64,000 nt of DNA from an uncultured Gammaproteobacteria bacterium (GCA_964590105.1 CAZPYM010000002.1:154697-218696); one strand, 5' to 3'; counted from the first letter of the stretch, positions 6,207 through 13,225 are shown. Translations and numbers: made by a program. Notes: generated from the letters alone by a model not told the origin.

Positions 6207-6380
6207 ATTATGAATAGGGCGGAATTGCGCTGTTGTGGGGGTTCAAAATCCTGAACCTTTACAACGCGGCGCGTTTTTATGTCTTGACCTGGCCGCCTTT
6301 TCTTGTTAACATAATAAGGCTTTTGTTGTTGTTTGACAATAAATCTCTCGACTGCGCTCGAGATCTATGAGGAGGGAAAA

Positions 6381-6782
6381 ATGTTTTATGCCCAGATAGC
6401 TTTTTTTTCGGTATTCTCCCTGTTCGCCGCGTGCGGCAGTTCCGCGAACAAGTCGGAAAGCAAAAAAGACGTTGACCCGGTGTTGCGGCAAACAGCTGAT
6501 GAAGCGTCGTGCGATCGGTTTGCCGAGGGCGAAGTCAAAGTGTTGAGGCGCGCTCAGACGCTCATGTGCCTGAACAATGGCGACGCCGGTGTTGTGCTGG
6601 AGCTGGCTTCAGAGCCGAGCGAGGACAGCGGCACGAAGATTGTTTACGATCTGCCTGCGCGTGGTTCGCAAAAATTCACCTTGCCCTTTATTGACGGATT
6701 TACAGTTAATGATATTTACGCTCGCCTTGATCGCGGCGAATGGCGCAAATTGTGCCGGGGAAGTAATCCGGCCGAAGAATAA
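6381..6782 (+). CDS. Small lipoprotein with 4 Cys. High-GC cassette.
   Basis: Start at the internal Met preceded by GAGGAGGGAAAAATG. Lipobox LFAAC-G. GC visibly higher than the backbone. No family recognised. Confidence 0.55.
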   Translation: MFYAQIAFFSVFSLFAACGSSANKSESKKDVDPVLRQTADEASCDRFAEGEVKVLRRAQTLMCLNNGDAGVVLELASEPSEDSGTKIVYDLPARGSQKFTLPFIDGFTVNDIYARLDRGEWRKLCRGSNPAEE

Positions 6783-6818
6783 ACTTATAGTCGATTGATC
6801 GCAATATCCGTAATACAA

Positions 6819-6845
6819 CTTCCGAACGCATTCGGGAGTTTTTTG
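6819..6845 (+). terminator. Intrinsic terminator cttCCGAAcgcaTTCGGgagTTTTTT. Near-identical copy at 13196..13225.
   Basis: 5-6 bp GC stem plus U-run. ~30 nt nearly identical to the second copy. Confidence 0.6.
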
Positions 6846-6869
6846 TTGAATAAAGTATTTCTGCCCGGC

Positions 6870-6898
6870 TTGACAGCGCAGATTTTTTCACTTATACT
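6870..6898 (+). promoter_or_regulatory. Sigma70-type promoter TTGACA-17-TATACT upstream of the radical-SAM gene.
   Basis: TTGACA at 6870-6875, 17-nt spacer, TATACT at 6893-6898. SD GAAGGAGG 6 nt before ATG at 6962. Confidence 0.55.
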
Positions 6899-6961
6899 GT
6901 TTTATTCTGATTGCACTTTGACAAGTCGATTCATTAACCTTTGGCAGAAGGAGGATAGGCA

Positions 6962-8326
6962 ATGCCGAGGAAGCAGCAGTTTGAAGTTGACGGCGTGAGG
7001 CACGCCACTATCAATGGTCATCGCTTTCATTTGCGGTGGACTGATCCGGGGAAAGATAATTTTCTCTGGATTGACGGCAAGCAGCCGCCATTGATACTGG
7101 ATCAGACAGCGGCAGATTTTGTCGCGCATTTGATTGACGCCATGTGGCTATTTCAGACCGGCGCGGGAGACAATTCTGCCCAAGTGATTAGACATGTTGT
7201 AGACAAAATGTATGACTGCTACGGGCGATCATCGATCATTCGAAAAAAGCGGGTCACAAGGGCCAGGATTGAAGCGGATTTCCAGCGGATTTTCGGCATG
7301 CTTATGGCGGTGGCCGACAGCGGTTGTCCGTATGAATCCGGGCTTGATTCCAAGGAGATCAATTATGGCGTCTGGGCGGCGCCGGCGCGCATGGATCTGG
7401 CAGTGACGTATCGATGCAATCTGCAGTGTAGCAAATGCTATCTTGGCGAGCGTAGCTCGCCGGATATGCCATTCGAATCATGGTTGGAAGTCTACAAAAG
7501 GCTTTGGGAAATCGGCATTTCACAGGTGGTGTTCACCGGAGGGGAGCCTTTGCTTCGTCCGGACATTGTGCAGTTGGTGTCCGAGGCAGACGAATTTGTC
7601 ACCGGGCTTATCACCAATGGAACAGAGCTCGCCCGGTTGGCACAGCCGTTGCGCGACGCCAGCCTGGATTATGTCCAGGTGACGATTGAATCTGCTTTCC
7701 CAACGGTTCACGATCTGATGACACAGACGCCCGGTTCATTGATGAAGACAATGGCCGGCATCAGGGCGGCGGTTGAGTGTGGATTACAGGTGGTGACCAA
7801 TACAACTCTGACAAAAGAGAATGCTGATGGTTTTTGCCGGCTTTTGCGCCAGTTAGAAGGACTCGGCGTGAAAAATGTCGCTTGCAACACGCTCATTTGC
7901 AGCGGACGCGGCACATATCATCGCATGCAGAATGGTCTTTCTGATGCAGAATTGCTCGCCGTAATCAAGCCGGCGCTGGCTGTGGCAAGAGACCTTGGTC
8001 AGAATCTGCAGTGGTATTCGCCGACCTGTTATAATCAGGGTGTGAATCCGATTGAGCTGGGCTTTGGCGTGAAGGCGTGTTCAGCCGCAGCTCACAACAT
8101 GATGGTTGGGCCGGATGGCGAAGTGTTTCCGTGCCAGTCATGGCCGAAATCGGTTGGAAACATCTTGCTGAATAGCTGGCCGGCAATCTGGGAACATCCC
8201 ACGTGCGTGGCTTTGCGCAATCACGAAATGGCGCCCGCGGCTTGCCGCGATTGCGAGCATTTGTCCGTCTGTGGCGGAGGATGCCCGCTCGACAAGGACG
8301 CGCGTCTCGGCGAGGTGAAGTCATGA
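6962..8326 (+). CDS. Radical SAM / SPASM-domain protein with ~130 aa N-terminal (RRE-like) extension. Putative peptide/protein-modifying maturase.
   Basis: CNLQCSKC (CX3CX2C, Cys152/156/159). C-terminal Cys cluster C-X2-C-X5-C-X3-C (CRDCEHLSVCGGGC) plus upstream CNTLICSG / CYNQG / CSAAAH, typical of the SPASM twitch. Stop overlaps the next start (ATGA). Confidence 0.85.
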   Translation: MPRKQQFEVDGVRHATINGHRFHLRWTDPGKDNFLWIDGKQPPLILDQTAADFVAHLIDAMWLFQTGAGDNSAQVIRHVVDKMYDCYGRSSIIRKKRVTRARIEADFQRIFGMLMAVADSGCPYESGLDSKEINYGVWAAPARMDLAVTYRCNLQCSKCYLGERSSPDMPFESWLEVYKRLWEIGISQVVFTGGEPLLRPDIVQLVSEADEFVTGLITNGTELARLAQPLRDASLDYVQVTIESAFPTVHDLMTQTPGSLMKTMAGIRAAVECGLQVVTNTTLTKENADGFCRLLRQLEGLGVKNVACNTLICSGRGTYHRMQNGLSDAELLAVIKPALAVARDLGQNLQWYSPTCYNQGVNPIELGFGVKACSAAAHNMMVGPDGEVFPCQSWPKSVGNILLNSWPAIWEHPTCVALRNHEMAPAACRDCEHLSVCGGGCPLDKDARLGEVKS

Positions 8327-9294
8327 ACAAGAGCATACTGGCGCTGCTGGCTTTTTGCCTGGCCCTGCCTGCGACAAAAGCGTTGGCCGGCGATACCGGC
8401 ACATACGAAATTCTGGATTACAGGGTCAATCTGACGCCGCGCGCTGACGGCACGGTGGATATTGACTATTATCAGAAATGGGCAGTGACCGGCGGGCACA
8501 TTCCATGGATTACGGTCGGCCTGCCGAACAGCGATTACGAAATCAAGAAAAGTTCAGGCAATGCCGCCTCCATCAAGCCGGCCAATAGCGGCGGTTGGAG
8601 CGGTGTTCGTCTGGATCTAGACCGGGATTATCAGCCGGACGAGACATTTGAGGTGAACTTTTCCATTGTTCAGACCAAGTTGTTCTGGGCTGATGAAGAA
8701 AAGTATTACCTCGCATACACTCCGGGCTGGTATGATCAGGCTCCGGTTCATAACTTGGACGTAACGGTACGCTTTTTTGCCAAGCTGGAATCGGTCACGG
8801 CCGAGCCGGAACCAAGCAAAAATGGCGATGAAACTTTGAGCTGGCAAACTTCGCTGGGCAAGGGCCAGAAGTTCAGCTTTGAGATTTCTTTTCCAAAGGC
8901 AGTGTTTGAGCAACCGATTTCGGAAGAAAATCTGAAAGATACTGGCGGAGTCGGTTGGTTGATCATCCTCATTATCTTCATTCTGCTAGTTGTCGTTATT
9001 ATTTTCCTCGCCGCCAGCGGAGTTTTTGGCGGGGGCGGATTTGGCGGCGGGGATGATGACGACGGGTACAGCGGTGGTAGCATTTTTTACGGTGGCGGCA
9101 GCGGAGGCGGATCTGGCGGTGGCGGCCGTTCAGCCGGCGGCGGAGGTGGCTTTGGCGGACGAACCAGTTCGTGCGCCTGTGCCTGTGTATCCTGCGCCTG
9201 TGCTTGCGCTTGCGCCGGCGGCGGCGGGGCTGGTTGCGACCGCAAAGCCAAGCATCTGTGTCCTGTTTGCAATCAAACAAGGGCAGAGAGCTAG
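8323..9294 (+). CDS. DUF2207-like exported membrane protein with Gly-rich tail extended by a (Cys-Ala)n repeat and a CxxC end.
   Basis: The start overlaps the rSAM stop (ATGA). Signal peptide MNKSILALLAFCLALPATKALA. ~200 aa ectodomain resembling the DUF2207 N-domain (TYEILDYRVNLTPRADGTVDIDYY...). One TM (WLIILIIFILLVVVIIFLAA). Tail GGGGFGGGDDDDGYSGG...GGGGGFGGRTSSCACACVSCACACACAGGGGAGCDRKAKHLCPVCNQTRAES. Confidence 0.7.
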   Translation: MNKSILALLAFCLALPATKALAGDTGTYEILDYRVNLTPRADGTVDIDYYQKWAVTGGHIPWITVGLPNSDYEIKKSSGNAASIKPANSGGWSGVRLDLDRDYQPDETFEVNFSIVQTKLFWADEEKYYLAYTPGWYDQAPVHNLDVTVRFFAKLESVTAEPEPSKNGDETLSWQTSLGKGQKFSFEISFPKAVFEQPISEENLKDTGGVGWLIILIIFILLVVVIIFLAASGVFGGGGFGGGDDDDGYSGGSIFYGGGSGGGSGGGGRSAGGGGGFGGRTSSCACACVSCACACACAGGGGAGCDRKAKHLCPVCNQTRAES

Positions 9295-9367
9295 CCGGAT
9301 TACGGCTAAATAGAAAACAATTCCCTGGACCTAGTTAAGTTCAGGGAGTTTTATTTGTATGGGACAC

Positions 9368-9396
9368 TTGACAAATTATAAGTTTCTTTATATGAT
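9368..9396 (+). promoter_or_regulatory. Sigma70-type promoter TTGACA-17-TATGAT.
   Basis: Consensus hexamers with a 17-nt spacer, ~50 nt upstream of ATG 9445 (SD AAGGGAGG). Confidence 0.5.
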
Positions 9397-9444
9397 TTTA
9401 TAATTACCCGAACATTGACAACTGACAAATTAAGGGAGGGTTTA

Positions 9445-10647
9445 ATGCAAAAGCTTAGTGTTGTGCTATTGCTGATTGCGGGCGCTGTTTTTACCGGCTG
9501 CAGTGAACAGCTGGGGGCGCTCGGAGGAACGTTTGCGCGTTCTTTGCTTTTCGTGCTTCCGTTTATCGCAGTCATGATTGGCATTATTTTTGCAATGAAC
9601 AAATGGATCGTTGATAGCCGCGGCGCAACAAATGAAAGACTTTGTTCAGCTGTCGGCGTTGTTAGTTTTCCGGTTTTGTTTTTCGTAGCCTTTTACTTGT
9701 ACTGGGGCTGGAGCTGGTGGGTCATCGGCGCCGCTTTTTTGCTCGGCGGGCCAATCGGCTGGTTCAGCTATACGCTCGATGAGCTTTTGGTAGAATTTTG
9801 GGAAAATCGAGTTGTTACCCTGCCGGGACTTGTCGGGTTGATTCTTGGAGGCGCGGTGATTGTCTCGTTTTTTACCGGCATTTGGCTGGAAGGCGATATG
9901 TATGTAACGAACAAGGCCTGTTCAGCTCGGGCAGTGGTTGAAAGATATAGCGAGACCTGCACCAAGGACGATGATGGGGTTCGTAGCTGTTCCGATTCCT
10001 GGGATTACTACTATCATGTTGACCGAATTGCTGATGGTTGGCAATTGCCTTCCCTGGAAAAAGGAAGAGATTACCAGCTCGGTCGCGGTGATTATGGCCG
10101 AGAAGACCGAGTTAGATTAGAATCATATTTTCTGATTGGCGGGCAGTTTTATTCTGAAGAACAAAAGCAATGGACAGAGTTTCGTTGGCTTGTTCTGAAA
10201 AAAAAGATCCCGGTGGAGTTGAGGCAGGTGCAACACATCCGCAGCAACTTTTACGGGAATCCGGCTGAAAACGCAGGCGCTGTTAGCGAGCCGGCGCCAT
10301 TGCCGGAGAGTGTGGCGGCAAGGGTGTTGACCGGTGATGATCTGCCGCCCGGATCAACAACAATGAAAGCCATTTCAATTGTTTGGGATACGGTTAAGCT
10401 ACTTTTTTCAGAAGAAGAATATAGGGGAATATTGTATATCTTCTTATGTGTTTTTGCATTAATTGGAACGCTGGCATTTTTTGTGCCGGTAACAAGGCCT
10501 TCAGTAGCGGCATTTACGAGTTGTTTTTTCATAATCGCTCTAATTGCAGTAATGATTATTGCGGCCAGAACCGGCAGTCTTGGTTCCGGCAGACGCCGGC
10601 GTTCTTCCGGCGGCGGCGGATTTGGTGGAAGAACGTTTACGCGTTAG
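9445..10647 (+). CDS. Polytopic membrane lipoprotein with Gly-rich C-terminal tail (GGGGFGGRT). Possible paralogous partner of the DUF2207-like protein.
   Basis: Start at the internal Met (MQKLSVVLLLIAGAVFTGC lipobox) with SD AAGGGAGGGTTTAATG. Predicted 3-4 N-terminal TMs, a ~200 aa soluble domain and 2 C-terminal TMs. Ends ...RRRRSSGGGGFGGRTFTR, the same motif as the preceding protein. Confidence 0.6.
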   Translation: MQKLSVVLLLIAGAVFTGCSEQLGALGGTFARSLLFVLPFIAVMIGIIFAMNKWIVDSRGATNERLCSAVGVVSFPVLFFVAFYLYWGWSWWVIGAAFLLGGPIGWFSYTLDELLVEFWENRVVTLPGLVGLILGGAVIVSFFTGIWLEGDMYVTNKACSARAVVERYSETCTKDDDGVRSCSDSWDYYYHVDRIADGWQLPSLEKGRDYQLGRGDYGREDRVRLESYFLIGGQFYSEEQKQWTEFRWLVLKKKIPVELRQVQHIRSNFYGNPAENAGAVSEPAPLPESVAARVLTGDDLPPGSTTMKAISIVWDTVKLLFSEEEYRGILYIFLCVFALIGTLAFFVPVTRPSVAAFTSCFFIIALIAVMIIAARTGSLGSGRRRRSSGGGGFGGRTFTR

Positions 10648-10657
10648 GGAGGTGATA

Positions 10658-11230
10658 ATGCGAAAAACATGTTTTCTGTTTGTCTTTTTGGCATTGCTAT
10701 TTAATGCTTGCTCTAAGGATGAGCAGGCTGATCAGCAGATGCCGGAAGCATCAAAGTACGGAGACCAAGCGCGGGTTCTCACGGGAGAGCCGGCGTTTCC
10801 GGCGCTGGAAAAAAGTTGGATTATTGACAAAGCCAATGCGGTTTCATTAGAAGTTGAAAGGACCGCCGATGCCGTTTTGCAGTCATTGCAGGACGACGGA
10901 TTGGCTGAAGTTGTTGTGTTAATTATCACAGGGGTGAAAAAGCCCGGTGACTATGCTACTCAATACGGACGTTTTCTTCAACTGGGCAAAGCAGGGCCGG
11001 CTTCGGACGGAGGAAACAGAGGCATTGTCTGGTTGGTCAGACCGGATGCTGATGAAAAAATGACCATCTCGGTTGGTCGCGGACTGCCCGGTTTTACCTC
11101 GCAGGACTATGGCGAGATTATGGACGCCGTGGGTGATTATTGTCAGTTCAACAATTATGACAAATGCGTGCAGAGACTCGCGGAAAAGACCAGTGAGGTT
11201 TTGCGCCGGCTGCAAAAAGTCAAACCCTAA
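10658..11230 (+). CDS. TPM-domain-like (DUF477/YgcG-type) lipoprotein.
   Basis: Start at the internal Met with SD GGGAGGTGATAATG. Lipobox LFNAC. Segment GIVWLVRPDADEKMTISVGRGLPGFTSQDYGEIMDAV resembles the TPM core. Family call is tentative. Confidence 0.45.
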   Translation: MRKTCFLFVFLALLFNACSKDEQADQQMPEASKYGDQARVLTGEPAFPALEKSWIIDKANAVSLEVERTADAVLQSLQDDGLAEVVVLIITGVKKPGDYATQYGRFLQLGKAGPASDGGNRGIVWLVRPDADEKMTISVGRGLPGFTSQDYGEIMDAVGDYCQFNNYDKCVQRLAEKTSEVLRRLQKVKP

Positions 11231-11252
11231 ATGCGACAAGGAGGCAAACCGC

Positions 11253-11900
11253 ATGAAAAAGGGAACAATCATTCTTCTCGCAGTGCTCGGAGTCTTCATT
11301 CTCGGCGGTGTGTCCATGTGCAGTTCTGTGGTGGGCGTGTGGAACACGCTCAACAGCAACTACCAGGGCGTGCAGGCCGGCAAATCGCACTACGGTGCGG
11401 CGCTCGACATCGTGCCGGAAAAGATCAAGGGAGTGTGGCAGCTCTCTGATCAGTATTTGGATCACGAATCCGACACATTCAAGATGGTGGCGGCGGCTAG
11501 GAGCGGACTGCTCCAATCCATCGATGGTTTCAAAAAGGCTGAGCAGGGCGGCGCTTCTGATGCGGACATGCTGAAGAATGGCCAGGGCGTCATGGACATG
11601 TTCAACAAGTTCAAGGATGCTAGCCTGGCAGTCAATGTGCAGATCGAGGCCTATCCGCAGCTTCGTGGCGCGGAAACAACCAAGACGGCCATGCGGGCAG
11701 TCGAGGAAGGCGTCAATGAAATCAAGACGGCGCTGGACGACTGGATCGCGTCCATCAAGGTGTACAATGAGTATCGCGGCAGCGCCTGGCCATCCATTCT
11801 TGGAGGATTTATGGCCAAGTTCCCGGTCGAGATTCCCTACTACGAAGCGGAAAGGACAAAGCTCAATATCGATGAGCTGAATCCAAAAAGCAACAAGTAG
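11253..11900 (+). CDS. LemA family protein.
   Basis: Start at the internal Met (MKKGTIILLAVLGVFILGG...) with SD AAGGAGG. N-terminal TM, then WNTLNSNYQGVQAGKSHYGAALDIVPEKIKGVWQL... consistent with LemA (PF04011). Family call from memory. Confidence 0.65.
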   Translation: MKKGTIILLAVLGVFILGGVSMCSSVVGVWNTLNSNYQGVQAGKSHYGAALDIVPEKIKGVWQLSDQYLDHESDTFKMVAAARSGLLQSIDGFKKAEQGGASDADMLKNGQGVMDMFNKFKDASLAVNVQIEAYPQLRGAETTKTAMRAVEEGVNEIKTALDDWIASIKVYNEYRGSAWPSILGGFMAKFPVEIPYYEAERTKLNIDELNPKSNK

Positions 11901-11996
11901 CGCCCTCGTGCGCTAAATAAAAATATCTTCCAGAGAACGTTCTGGGAGATTTTTTGTTAGACAAAGAAGCTTAATTTGAACTAAAATCGCGCGCCA

Positions 11997-12025
11997 TTGA
12001 CATTTCTATATAATTTTGCTATAGT
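11997..12025 (+). promoter_or_regulatory. Sigma70-type promoter TTGACA-17-TATAGT.
   Basis: Consensus hexamers. SD GGAGGTGGAGACATG at 12064. Confidence 0.5.
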
Positions 12026-12063
12026 TAATTGTTGTCATTTGACAATTTAACGGAGGTGGAGAC

Positions 12064-12597
12064 ATGGTTACTCTAGCAATCATTTTCGTCGTTGGGCTGT
12101 TTGGATTGGCCGCGAGCCTTTGTTATTTGTTTTTTAGCAACAGAGTACATTCGGGCGTCAGCCTGGCGATAATTTCCTTGCTTGCTTCTCTTTTGATTCT
12201 GTTATTTGCCGGCTTTAATCTGATTAGTCAGAATCTTGATCTTAAGTCGGAGGAGGAAAGTCCGCGCGTCGAGGAAGGTGAGCCAGTTGAGCTGAATCCT
12301 TCGGGTTGCGTGCTTGAATGGAAAGATTTGCGAATCGTAGGAAACTACGGCGCGATCACGGTTGCAAATAAGTCGAATGCCGACGTTGAAGTCTGGGTGT
12401 CTGCGACCGGCATGAGCCTACAGGCAAAGCTGGAACCCAAGCGCGGCATCCGTCTTCGTTCCGGCGTGAGGTTTCCGGAAACAGACATGGCCTGGACAGT
12501 GAAGCTCTCGACCGGCGAGAGCCGAAGCTTCGACTTCTTGAATTGTTTGCCGCTTGCTTGCGATCTTCAACCAGCATATGGGCTGGAACGGGAATAG
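12064..12597 (+). CDS. Hypothetical membrane-anchored protein (2 N-terminal TMs plus ~110 aa domain).
   Basis: ORF with strong SD. High GC. No recognisable family. Confidence 0.5.
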   Translation: MVTLAIIFVVGLFGLAASLCYLFFSNRVHSGVSLAIISLLASLLILLFAGFNLISQNLDLKSEEESPRVEEGEPVELNPSGCVLEWKDLRIVGNYGAITVANKSNADVEVWVSATGMSLQAKLEPKRGIRLRSGVRFPETDMAWTVKLSTGESRSFDFLNCLPLACDLQPAYGLERE

Positions 12598-12606
12598 GAG
12601 GACAAC

Positions 12607-12900
12607 ATGGGCGAAATATTCCTGCTGTGGTTTGGCCGTTTGTGCCTGCTGTTGGTAGGGCTGGCGGTTGTCTGGTGGTTCAGGCAGTCGTGCGGAGACA
12701 TTTGGTCAAGCGTTGAAGAACGGATTCCAGTTTTGGCGCTCGGCCTTTTCGCTCTGGTGATTTGCGCGCTGACCTTTGCACCGCCTCGAATCAACTATTT
12801 GAAGTATCCGCCGGTAATCAGAGCCATGAACGCGCCGGCGCCTGATCAGATCTCACGATGTCTTGAAGGGAAAATCAACATTCCGATTTGTCGGAAATAG
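12607..12900 (+). CDS. Small hypothetical membrane protein (2 TM).
   Basis: SD ATAGGAGGACAACATG. Hydrophobic segments. High GC. Confidence 0.4.
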   Translation: MGEIFLLWFGRLCLLLVGLAVVWWFRQSCGDIWSSVEERIPVLALGLFALVICALTFAPPRINYLKYPPVIRAMNAPAPDQISRCLEGKINIPICRK

Positions 12901-12910
12901 AAGGGGGCCC

Positions 12911-13180
12911 ATGGTTTCCATGTATATTACTCTTGCGTGGTTAATGATCATTGTGACTTTGTTTTTGGCTTTGGGCGCGTGGAGCTATTGGAGTGAACCG
13001 CCCGAACCGGCAAAAGCAATTTTTTGCGGATTGCTGGCGACAGCACTCCTTCTCCTGGCTGGAGTTTTCTTTGTGCGCGCGCAGAATGAGCAGAAAAAGA
13101 TAAAGGCGGCTATGCTAGAGGTGGAAGACACCGTCATCCATGAAGACCTGCTGGACGTCAAAAGCAGGCAACTTCCATAA
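12911..13180 (+). CDS. Small hypothetical membrane protein (2 TM).
   Basis: Internal Met start preceded by AAGGGGGCCCATG. Two hydrophobic helices. Confidence 0.35.
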   Translation: MVSMYITLAWLMIIVTLFLALGAWSYWSEPPEPAKAIFCGLLATALLLLAGVFFVRAQNEQKKIKAAMLEVEDTVIHEDLLDVKSRQLP

Positions 13181-13195
13181 TTCAATGAATAAAAA

Positions 13196-13225
13196 CTTCC
13201 CGAACGCATTCGGGAGTTTTTTTTG
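13196..13225 (+). terminator. Intrinsic terminator cttCCCGAAcgcaTTCGGGagTTTTTTTT. Right-hand copy of the island boundary repeat.
   Basis: Stem-loop plus U-run. Near-identical to 6819..6845. Confidence 0.6.

Follow-up and report, generated by a model that had tools for sequence, protein, structure and literature searches.

The pairing of a radical SAM/SPASM enzyme with a cysteine-rich target is already known from several systems. The sactipeptide maturases and their precursors (SkfB/SkfA, AlbA/SboA and CteB/CteA) involve a small leader-core peptide, SCIFF/ranthipeptide systems combine a TIGR03973-type peptide of ~45 residues with a radical SAM enzyme, and the ACGX system (TIGR04340/TIGR04341) consists of small peptides with a four-residue Cys repeat and their radical SAM/SPASM enzyme. 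A protein target is represented by QhpC, the gamma subunit of quinohemoprotein amine dehydrogenase, in which the SPASM enzyme QhpD installs several intraprotein Cys thioether bridges and which stays in a functional complex rather than being released. We have followed up an original prediction concerning a 64,000-nucleotide stretch of DNA from an uncultured Gammaproteobacteria bacterium (GCA_964590105.1 CAZPYM010000002.1:154697-218696; the window, numbered from its first letter), in which a radical SAM/SPASM gene at 6962..8326 is followed by a gene at 8323..9294 encoding a single-pass membrane protein with a Cys-Ala-rich C-terminus, referred to here as the tail protein. Both genes, and all features located below within them and in the three genes that follow, lie on the + strand. 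We consider it probable that the two genes form a dedicated enzyme-substrate module, in which the SPASM enzyme modifies the Cys-Ala core of a membrane-retained protein, as judged from comparative genomics and predicted structures.

What is new in comparison with the known systems is the target, the tail of a membrane-anchored protein, together with an undescribed CxCxCxC-GGGxAGC signature and the presence of the module in a TPM/LemA operon. In contrast to the small sactipeptide precursors, the tail belongs to a membrane protein of 300-600 aa, its cysteines are arranged as CxCxCxC rather than with CxxxC spacing and a conserved protease or exporter is absent; the NCBIfam sactipeptide models score the enzyme at 88 against a cutoff of 625 (StsB) and 56 against 300 (SkfB). 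The SCIFF/ranthipeptide systems likewise associate a conserved Cys-rich sequence with one SPASM enzyme in anaerobes, but their motif differs from that of the tail protein; at E ≤ 0.01 the tail protein has no match to any SCIFF/ranthipeptide model, nor does such a model occur among the 25 listed NCBIfam matches of the enzyme. Similarly, the ACGX system couples a SPASM enzyme to a short repeat containing Cys, although the target there is a small peptide; the ACGX enzyme model is not among the same 25 matches and no NCBIfam model matches the tail protein. QhpC differs in that it is a soluble subunit of small size in the periplasm, in which bridges connect Cys to Asp/Glu and a quinone cofactor is present, and no sequence relationship to the tail protein was detected. 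The gene context, with TPM and LemA genes downstream of the tail protein, is that of LemA/TPM-domain/DUF2207 (YgcG-like) clusters, and the build of the tail protein, consisting of a signal peptide, beta-sandwich ectodomain, transmembrane helix and Gly-rich cytoplasmic tail, also matches DUF2207/YgcG-like proteins, a GGGASGSW-type tail preceding the CA module in some relatives. The tail protein differs, however, in having no Pfam DUF2207 match at threshold, and we know of no ordinary LemA, TPM or DUF2207 member that carries the CA core or has an associated radical SAM enzyme. Full-text literature searches, excluding subscription journals, found no description of the tail protein, the CACACACA motif or the gene combination; SPASM enzymes are mentioned in unrelated peptide systems (Kaur et al., 2020; PMC7159879).

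Linkage between the two genes is observed in both directions. Scanning of genome contigs with the tail-protein patterns CACACACA and [DE]FTPGWY[DE] identified 49 loci, in 48 of which an enzyme homologue is directly adjacent, almost always immediately upstream and either abutting or overlapping; at the remaining locus (L017) the contig starts inside the tail-protein gene and leaves no upstream room. Among the hosts of these loci are Krumholzibacteria, Zixibacteria, Aminicenantes, Chitinivibrionia, Dehalococcoidia, Lachnospiraceae, Oscillospiraceae, Chloroflexi and Methanomassiliicoccales. Conversely, metagenome contigs scanned with the enzyme patterns CSAAAHNM and PARMDLA[VIL]T yielded 80 loci, with the tail protein directly downstream in 69, 10 contigs ending too soon and one locus lacking it, such that 69 of the 70 loci with downstream room carry the tail protein. 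All-against-all clustering of the flanking open reading frames (ORFs) from the 49 genome loci indicated that only the enzyme and tail-protein families are conserved throughout, no conserved protease, exporter or transporter being present among them. At three loci (L020, L022 and L035) a lone radical SAM gene is flanked or followed by two tail-protein genes, a likeness to RiPP (peptide made by the ribosome and modified after translation) clusters, in which one enzyme may have multiple precursors. The second copy at L035 contains a split run, CACACACAGGGGGGCACAGSGRAGC. In the window, the start codon of the tail-protein gene (ATG at 8323) and the TGA that ends the enzyme gene overlap in the predicted ATGA arrangement (8323..8326), with a Shine-Dalgarno-like GAGGTGA upstream of the ATG, an overlap which indicates that enzyme and tail protein are translationally coupled.

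The motif is conserved well beyond the window organism. Among the candidates scored in a search of 5.8 billion proteins, 974 are tail-protein homologues with E ≤ 1e-3, and for each of the best 120 the value is below 1e-98. Close homologues of named source are annotated as Patescibacteria, Krumholzibacteria, Zixibacteria, Verrucomicrobia, Desulfobacterales and Thermoleophilia, and almost all close homologues end in SCACACV[SAG]CACACACAGGGGAGC[SD][RK]KxxHxCPxC. When 1.84 billion representatives from clustering at 50% identity were searched exhaustively with a profile, 706 clusters reached E ≤ 1e-3 and 407 reached E ≤ 1e-10, and the motif is present in 131 of the 150 best family representatives at this clustering level, the 19 lacking it being mostly fragments. 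Residue frequencies were determined in the 123 motif-bearing representatives which fit a stricter pattern, anchored where the last CA run ends. The core consensus is CACACACA-GGG-[R/G/A]-A-G-C-x-x-K, with the four Cys present in 93-100% of the 123, GGG in 94-98% and the following A, G, C and K in 90%, 96%, 96% and 92%, respectively. Unlike the core, the rest of the cytoplasmic part varies, with lineage-specific accessory modules upstream (CACACVS, CAHSS and CVSS) and lineage-specific ends downstream (HxCPxC in the window clade and KDFY in Firmicutes), while the Chloroflexi and Methanomassiliicoccales versions end exactly at ...(CA)nGGGR. In the alignment, conservation is as strong in the ectodomain as in the tail. 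Assuming ~1% Cys and 9% Ala, a rough estimate of the chance expectation of CACACACA is ~0.15 in the 2.4e11 residues searched. The Cys-Ala tail is a conserved peptide signature, occurring beyond chance in hundreds of clusters from many phyla; viral contigs scanned for the motif gave 0 matches.

Two variants were observed among these loci. A subtype from Chloroflexi and Methanomassiliicoccales (L044, L045, L048, L049, L051 and L053) is ~580 aa long, with a large cytoplasmic domain and the ...(CA)nGGGR end, and after it come genes for the SPASM enzyme, for a second radical SAM protein and for a class I methyltransferase. At L014 (10686-10949) the Cys-Ala box is out of frame with the protein body, which probably reflects an assembly frameshift or a pseudogene.

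The assignment of the upstream gene to the radical SAM/SPASM enzymes proved correct. The 454-aa product, the proposed maturase, matches Pfam Radical_SAM (PF04055, 1.1e-21) and, at residues 373-432, SPASM (PF13186, 3.5e-9), the SPASM match being found in 42 of 42 diverse enzyme homologues. The CxxxCxxC radical-SAM cluster motif (C152, C156 and C159; 7415..7438) is invariant in enzyme alignments, as are the columns of the auxiliary-cluster motif C373-x12-G386-x4-C391 ... C428-x2-C431-x5-C437-x3-C441 (8078..8284), which conforms to the C-terminal SPASM pattern Cx9-15Gx4C ... Cx2Cx5Cx3C; C308, C313 and C356 are further invariant cysteines in the orthologue alignment. Orthologues are 56-64% identical over 97-99% of their length, the first 140 residues included. 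The AlphaFold2 (AF2) model of the enzyme has a mean pLDDT (predicted local distance difference test) of 75, and its nearest structural relative is SkfB, a RiPP maturase. No named NCBIfam radical SAM/SPASM equivalog was reached, the best match scoring 99 bits against a cutoff of 515 (NirJ). The enzyme matched 65 NCBIfam families in all, and the 25 listed, each far under its cutoff, include NirJ, ScmE, AhbD, PqqE, GeoRSP, WgkB, StsB, SbtM, SkfB and MftC. PADLOC defence models applied to the operon proteins detected only generic radical SAM similarity to viperins (51 bits), the six other scanned proteins being without match.

The first 140 residues of the enzyme (6962..7381) form a candidate peptide-recognition domain, resembling the RiPP recognition element (RRE) or PqqD. 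AF2 predicts four strands (E) followed by three helices (H), namely E12-17, E20-25, E33-37, E44-46, H48-64, H72-87 and H100-118, and the domain is conserved in all enzyme orthologues in the alignment. This order of elements is the RRE topology, PqqD-related winged-helix domains having three strands before three helices. PqqD matches were obtained below threshold in 3 of the 42 diverse homologues, the best with E = 6e-4 and 20.5 bits against a cutoff of 23.4. Assignment as an RRE is likely but unproven, because the predicted topology fits, yet the window copy is without a sequence match and the distant homologues remain sub-threshold. The first hairpin also contains a His-rich motif, RHATINGHRFHLR (residues 14-25; window 6962-7040), in which H23 is invariant and H14 nearly so across the 42 homologues, and which may represent a metal-contact or substrate-contact site.

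The tail protein, of 323 aa, ends in the predicted Cys-Ala tail (...SCACACVSCACACACAGGGGAGCDRKAKHLCPVCNQTRAES at the C-terminus of the ORF, quoted end ...GGGGGFGGRTSSCACACVSCACACACAGGGGAGCDRKAKHLCPVCNQTRAES), although its last 41 residues contain 10 Cys and not the 12 originally counted. Because the ectodomain is free of Cys, these 10 account for all cysteines in the mature form. No family was identified by Pfam, NCBIfam and PADLOC scans and a PDB sequence search using the family profile gave no match, so that Pfam, NCBIfam and the PDB contain no entry for either the family or its motif. The protein had been described as DUF2207-like; however, it does not match Pfam DUF2207 (PF09972) at E ≤ 1, only one of 10 diverse relatives does so (E = 0.042, 14.5 bits against a cutoff of 24.4), and two Chloroflexi/archaeal long forms gave no DUF2207 match. 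Since membership in the Pfam family is not detected, the likeness is one of architecture and gene context only. A hydrophobic N-terminal segment with an AxA site, followed by an invariant DTGTY, suggests that residues 1-23 (8323..8391, ending ...KALA before GD) are a signal peptide, AF2 placing a helix at residues 3-14. In the AF2 model, built from 25 sequences, residues 27-191 (8401..8895) form a Cys-free, presumably extracytoplasmic beta-sandwich with pLDDT above 90, followed by a predicted transmembrane helix at residues 210-231 (8950..9015). Residues 239-317 are predicted to be disordered, with pLDDT below 50, which fits the expectation for a substrate segment.

Four elements are distinguished in this C-terminal part. 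A Gly-rich, predicted cytoplasmic linker with conserved YSGGxIFYGG and GGGGGFGGR (9028..9168; pLDDT below 50) precedes an accessory Cys module, CACAC (C284, C286 and C288; 9172..9186), which is kept in the close clade and variable or absent in distant clades. The core signature CACACACA-GGGG-AGC-DR-K (C291..K308; 9193..9246), CACACACAGGGGAGCDRK in its short peptide form, is the proposed modification or recognition site. The protein then terminates with the clade-specific H-x-C-P-x-C end (H311, C313 and C316; 9253..9270), possibly a metal-binding knuckle, in which C313 and C316 are invariant among close homologues and in place of which KDFY stands in Firmicute relatives.

Three observations suggest that the tail lies in the cytoplasm, in agreement with the expectation raised by the original prediction. 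The order of domains is signal peptide, ectodomain and a single transmembrane helix, with R/K just past the helix in homologues. In the natural fusions P0047 and P0057 the tail is followed by a lipobox/transmembrane segment and then by an extracytoplasmic TPM domain. Zn_ribbon_TFIIB domains are situated between the transmembrane helix and the Cys-Ala box in the Firmicute relatives P0282, P0298 and P0367. Single-ORF fusions of the tail protein with the downstream TPM lipoprotein number four (P0047, P0057, P0061 and P0268), and in these the Cys-Ala box would be an internal cytoplasmic loop between two membrane segments.

Combined, the two-way linkage at ~130 loci, the architecture and fold of the enzyme and the predicted topology strongly support the tail as substrate of the enzyme. 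This part of the original prediction has thus gained support from each of these, while the step from association to modification is one that we infer from sequences and models. In the mechanism that we propose, the signal peptide would export the tail protein, hence placing the beta-sandwich outside the cell, and the single helix would anchor it in the membrane, such that the disordered Gly-rich tail with all of the mature cysteines remains in the cytoplasm. The radical SAM/SPASM enzyme, produced from the same mRNA, would bind the invariant (Cys-Ala)4-GGG-x-AGC-x-x-K core, probably via its RRE-like N-terminal domain, and modify it after translation through Cys-centred radical chemistry. As to the type of chemistry, we speculate that the tail most plausibly acquires several thioether cross-links within itself, of sactionine or ranthionine type, the analogy being to the nearest structural relatives and to the Cys-rich segments in sactipeptide, ranthipeptide and QhpD systems. 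Such cross-links would convert a floppy tail into a rigid, sulfur-rich and possibly metal-binding knot. The physiological role is equally speculative; the modified protein would stay in the membrane and, in this clade, may work with the downstream TPM-domain lipoprotein and the LemA protein. Still more tentatively, and as a possibility to which we would not give even odds, (Cys-Ala)4-GGG-x-AGC-x-x-K may be a new radical-SAM-dependent modification site through which the tail becomes a protein-derived cofactor rich in sulfur or a cross-linked cage; a polythioether or a modified thiolate-metal centre would be examples.

Several observations weigh against a dedicated enzyme-substrate module. An enzyme orthologue of ~53% identity at metagenome locus L122 (3917-5329) adjoins unrelated lipoproteins instead of a tail protein, and full-length family members without the motif exist (P0264, P0306 and P0316). 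Neither Pfam nor the PDB gave a significant PqqD/RRE sequence match for the N-terminal domain of the window enzyme, the chemistry is entirely deduced, and SPASM enzymes also use non-peptide substrates, the structural neighbours of the enzyme including BlsE and the lipid-modifying GDGT-MAS. Finally, the cysteine run could bind a metal or Fe-S cluster without being modified. This last point leads to an alternative which we regard as unlikely but worth serious consideration, namely that the tail is a metallothionein- or cluster-carrier-like module for metal or Fe-S clusters, not covalently modified and linked to the enzyme in some other way; it might hold the enzyme at the membrane or be a donor or acceptor of clusters, with the enzyme acting on a lipid or small molecule, as BlsE and GDGT-MAS do on non-peptide substrates. 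CxCxC patterns are classic thiolate-cluster ligands in metallothioneins, the H-x-C-P-x-C end and the Zn-ribbons of relatives indicate metal binding of the cytoplasmic part in some lineages, and the hosts are mostly anaerobes, all of which would suit such a function. However, simple metal tails rarely need 18 nearly invariant residues including Ala, Gly and Lys, the conserved N-terminal domain of the enzyme has an RRE-like topology, its best structural match is a RiPP maturase, and no other candidate substrate gene is conserved nearby in the 49 genome loci. Conversion of a tail Cys to formylglycine by an oxidase of the anaerobic sulfatase-maturating enzyme (anSME) type, instead of cross-linking, appears improbable, as the tail lacks the C/S-x-P/A-x-R sulfatase motif and no sulfatase domain is present. 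anSMEs differ from what is proposed here in recognition motif and in modifying a single residue, and to our knowledge they have no N-terminal recognition domain, whereas the window enzyme has a candidate one. Slightly less credible again is that the tail is a RiPP precursor, modified and then cut off and released as a Cys-rich peptide natural product, an outcome which the original prediction had entertained. The enzyme class and the Cys-rich segment do resemble sactipeptide, ranthipeptide and SCIFF clusters, but the neighbourhood has no conserved protease or exporter, the tail is an internal loop before a transmembrane segment and TPM domain in natural fusions and the ectodomain is conserved to the same degree as the tail. 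In addition, the 111 motif-bearing ORFs are all at least 309 aa (stop-to-stop) except for one frameshift fragment, and none is a small stand-alone peptide.

The DNA encoding the tail had been interpreted as a near-perfect tandem of hexamers, and a contingency locus, in which in-frame slippage alters the number of Cys-Ala units and generates population variation, would be the corresponding explanation. As predicted, the unit TGCGCCTGTGC occurs twice, at 9172 and 9193, and a repeat is indeed detectable; however, in Tandem Repeats Finder it is confined to 9191..9220 (score 32 and 79% matches at period 6) and the hexamer run is broken by GTA TCC (Val-Ser), so the description as near-perfect does not hold. 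Four independent assemblies of the window organism have a Cys-Ala run identical to that of the window, a comparison of copy number which revealed no variation, and the 3+4 arrangement is kept in nearly all 120 close homologues, compared as protein sequences only. Across 7 loci read as DNA, the same peptide is specified by Cys (TGC/TGT) and Ala (GCC/GCT/GCG/GCA) codons which vary synonymously, suggesting that selection acts on the peptide and that the DNA is not a clean repeat. Distant lineages do vary, both in accessory modules and in the number of CA units in the last run (2 to 5, mostly 4 or 5), but from the sequences compared this is slow evolutionary change and not contingency variation. 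Slippage is therefore highly improbable and was dropped on account of the weak repeat, identical assemblies, mixed codons and constant 3+4 arrangement.

Downstream of the enzyme and tail-protein genes, the operon continues with three genes. The first (9445..10647) encodes a 400-aa multi-pass membrane protein situated between the tail protein and the TPM gene. It had been taken for a paralogue of the tail protein; however, the BLASTP comparison gives E = 0.5 and the common part is confined to GGGGFGGRT, encoded by different codons. It is absent from all 80 metagenome loci and is therefore a lineage-specific insertion in this organism. The TPM-domain lipoprotein (10658..11230; Pfam TPM_phosphatase, 2e-11) and the LemA-family protein (11253..11900; Pfam LemA, 2.8e-10) are conserved operon partners in the close clade: a TPM gene follows the tail protein in 48 of the 80 metagenome loci, TPM is fused to the tail protein in the homologues P0047 and P0057, and the order enzyme, tail protein, TPM and LemA, with LemA as fourth gene, is found in 44 of the 80. 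The operon and its small flanking ORFs occupy a block of 49-57% GC (window 6300-13200) bordered by flanks of ~35-45% GC, which suggests a horizontally acquired island. Its left junction with the Wzy_C, NUDIX and Cpn10 genes recurs in an independent Joint Genome Institute (JGI) contig, L001. Upstream of the operon lies a 133-aa putative lipoprotein (6381-6782) and downstream are three small membrane ORFs (12064-13180); where scanned, these small ORFs gave no Pfam, NCBIfam or PADLOC match at curated cut-offs, and flanking ORFs of 133 and 177 aa used as queries were absent from the 80 related metagenome loci.

Most of what is known of radical SAM/SPASM enzymes concerns the maturation of small peptides and of a few soluble proteins, whereas the target here would be the tail of an integral membrane protein. 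The almost invariant 18-residue target spans many bacterial phyla, including the abundant gut Lachnospiraceae and Oscillospiraceae, as well as Methanomassiliicoccales archaea, and the system thus ranges from gut Firmicutes and sediment phyla to archaea and close relatives annotated as Patescibacteria. The pair constitutes a directly testable enzyme-substrate system which might reveal new Cys-centred radical chemistry. It also provides a first functional handle on LemA/TPM/YgcG-type membrane clusters, which are very common and have no known role. If the more tentative reading of the tail as a cofactor or cage is true, these membrane modules would gain a redox- or metal-active cytoplasmic end.

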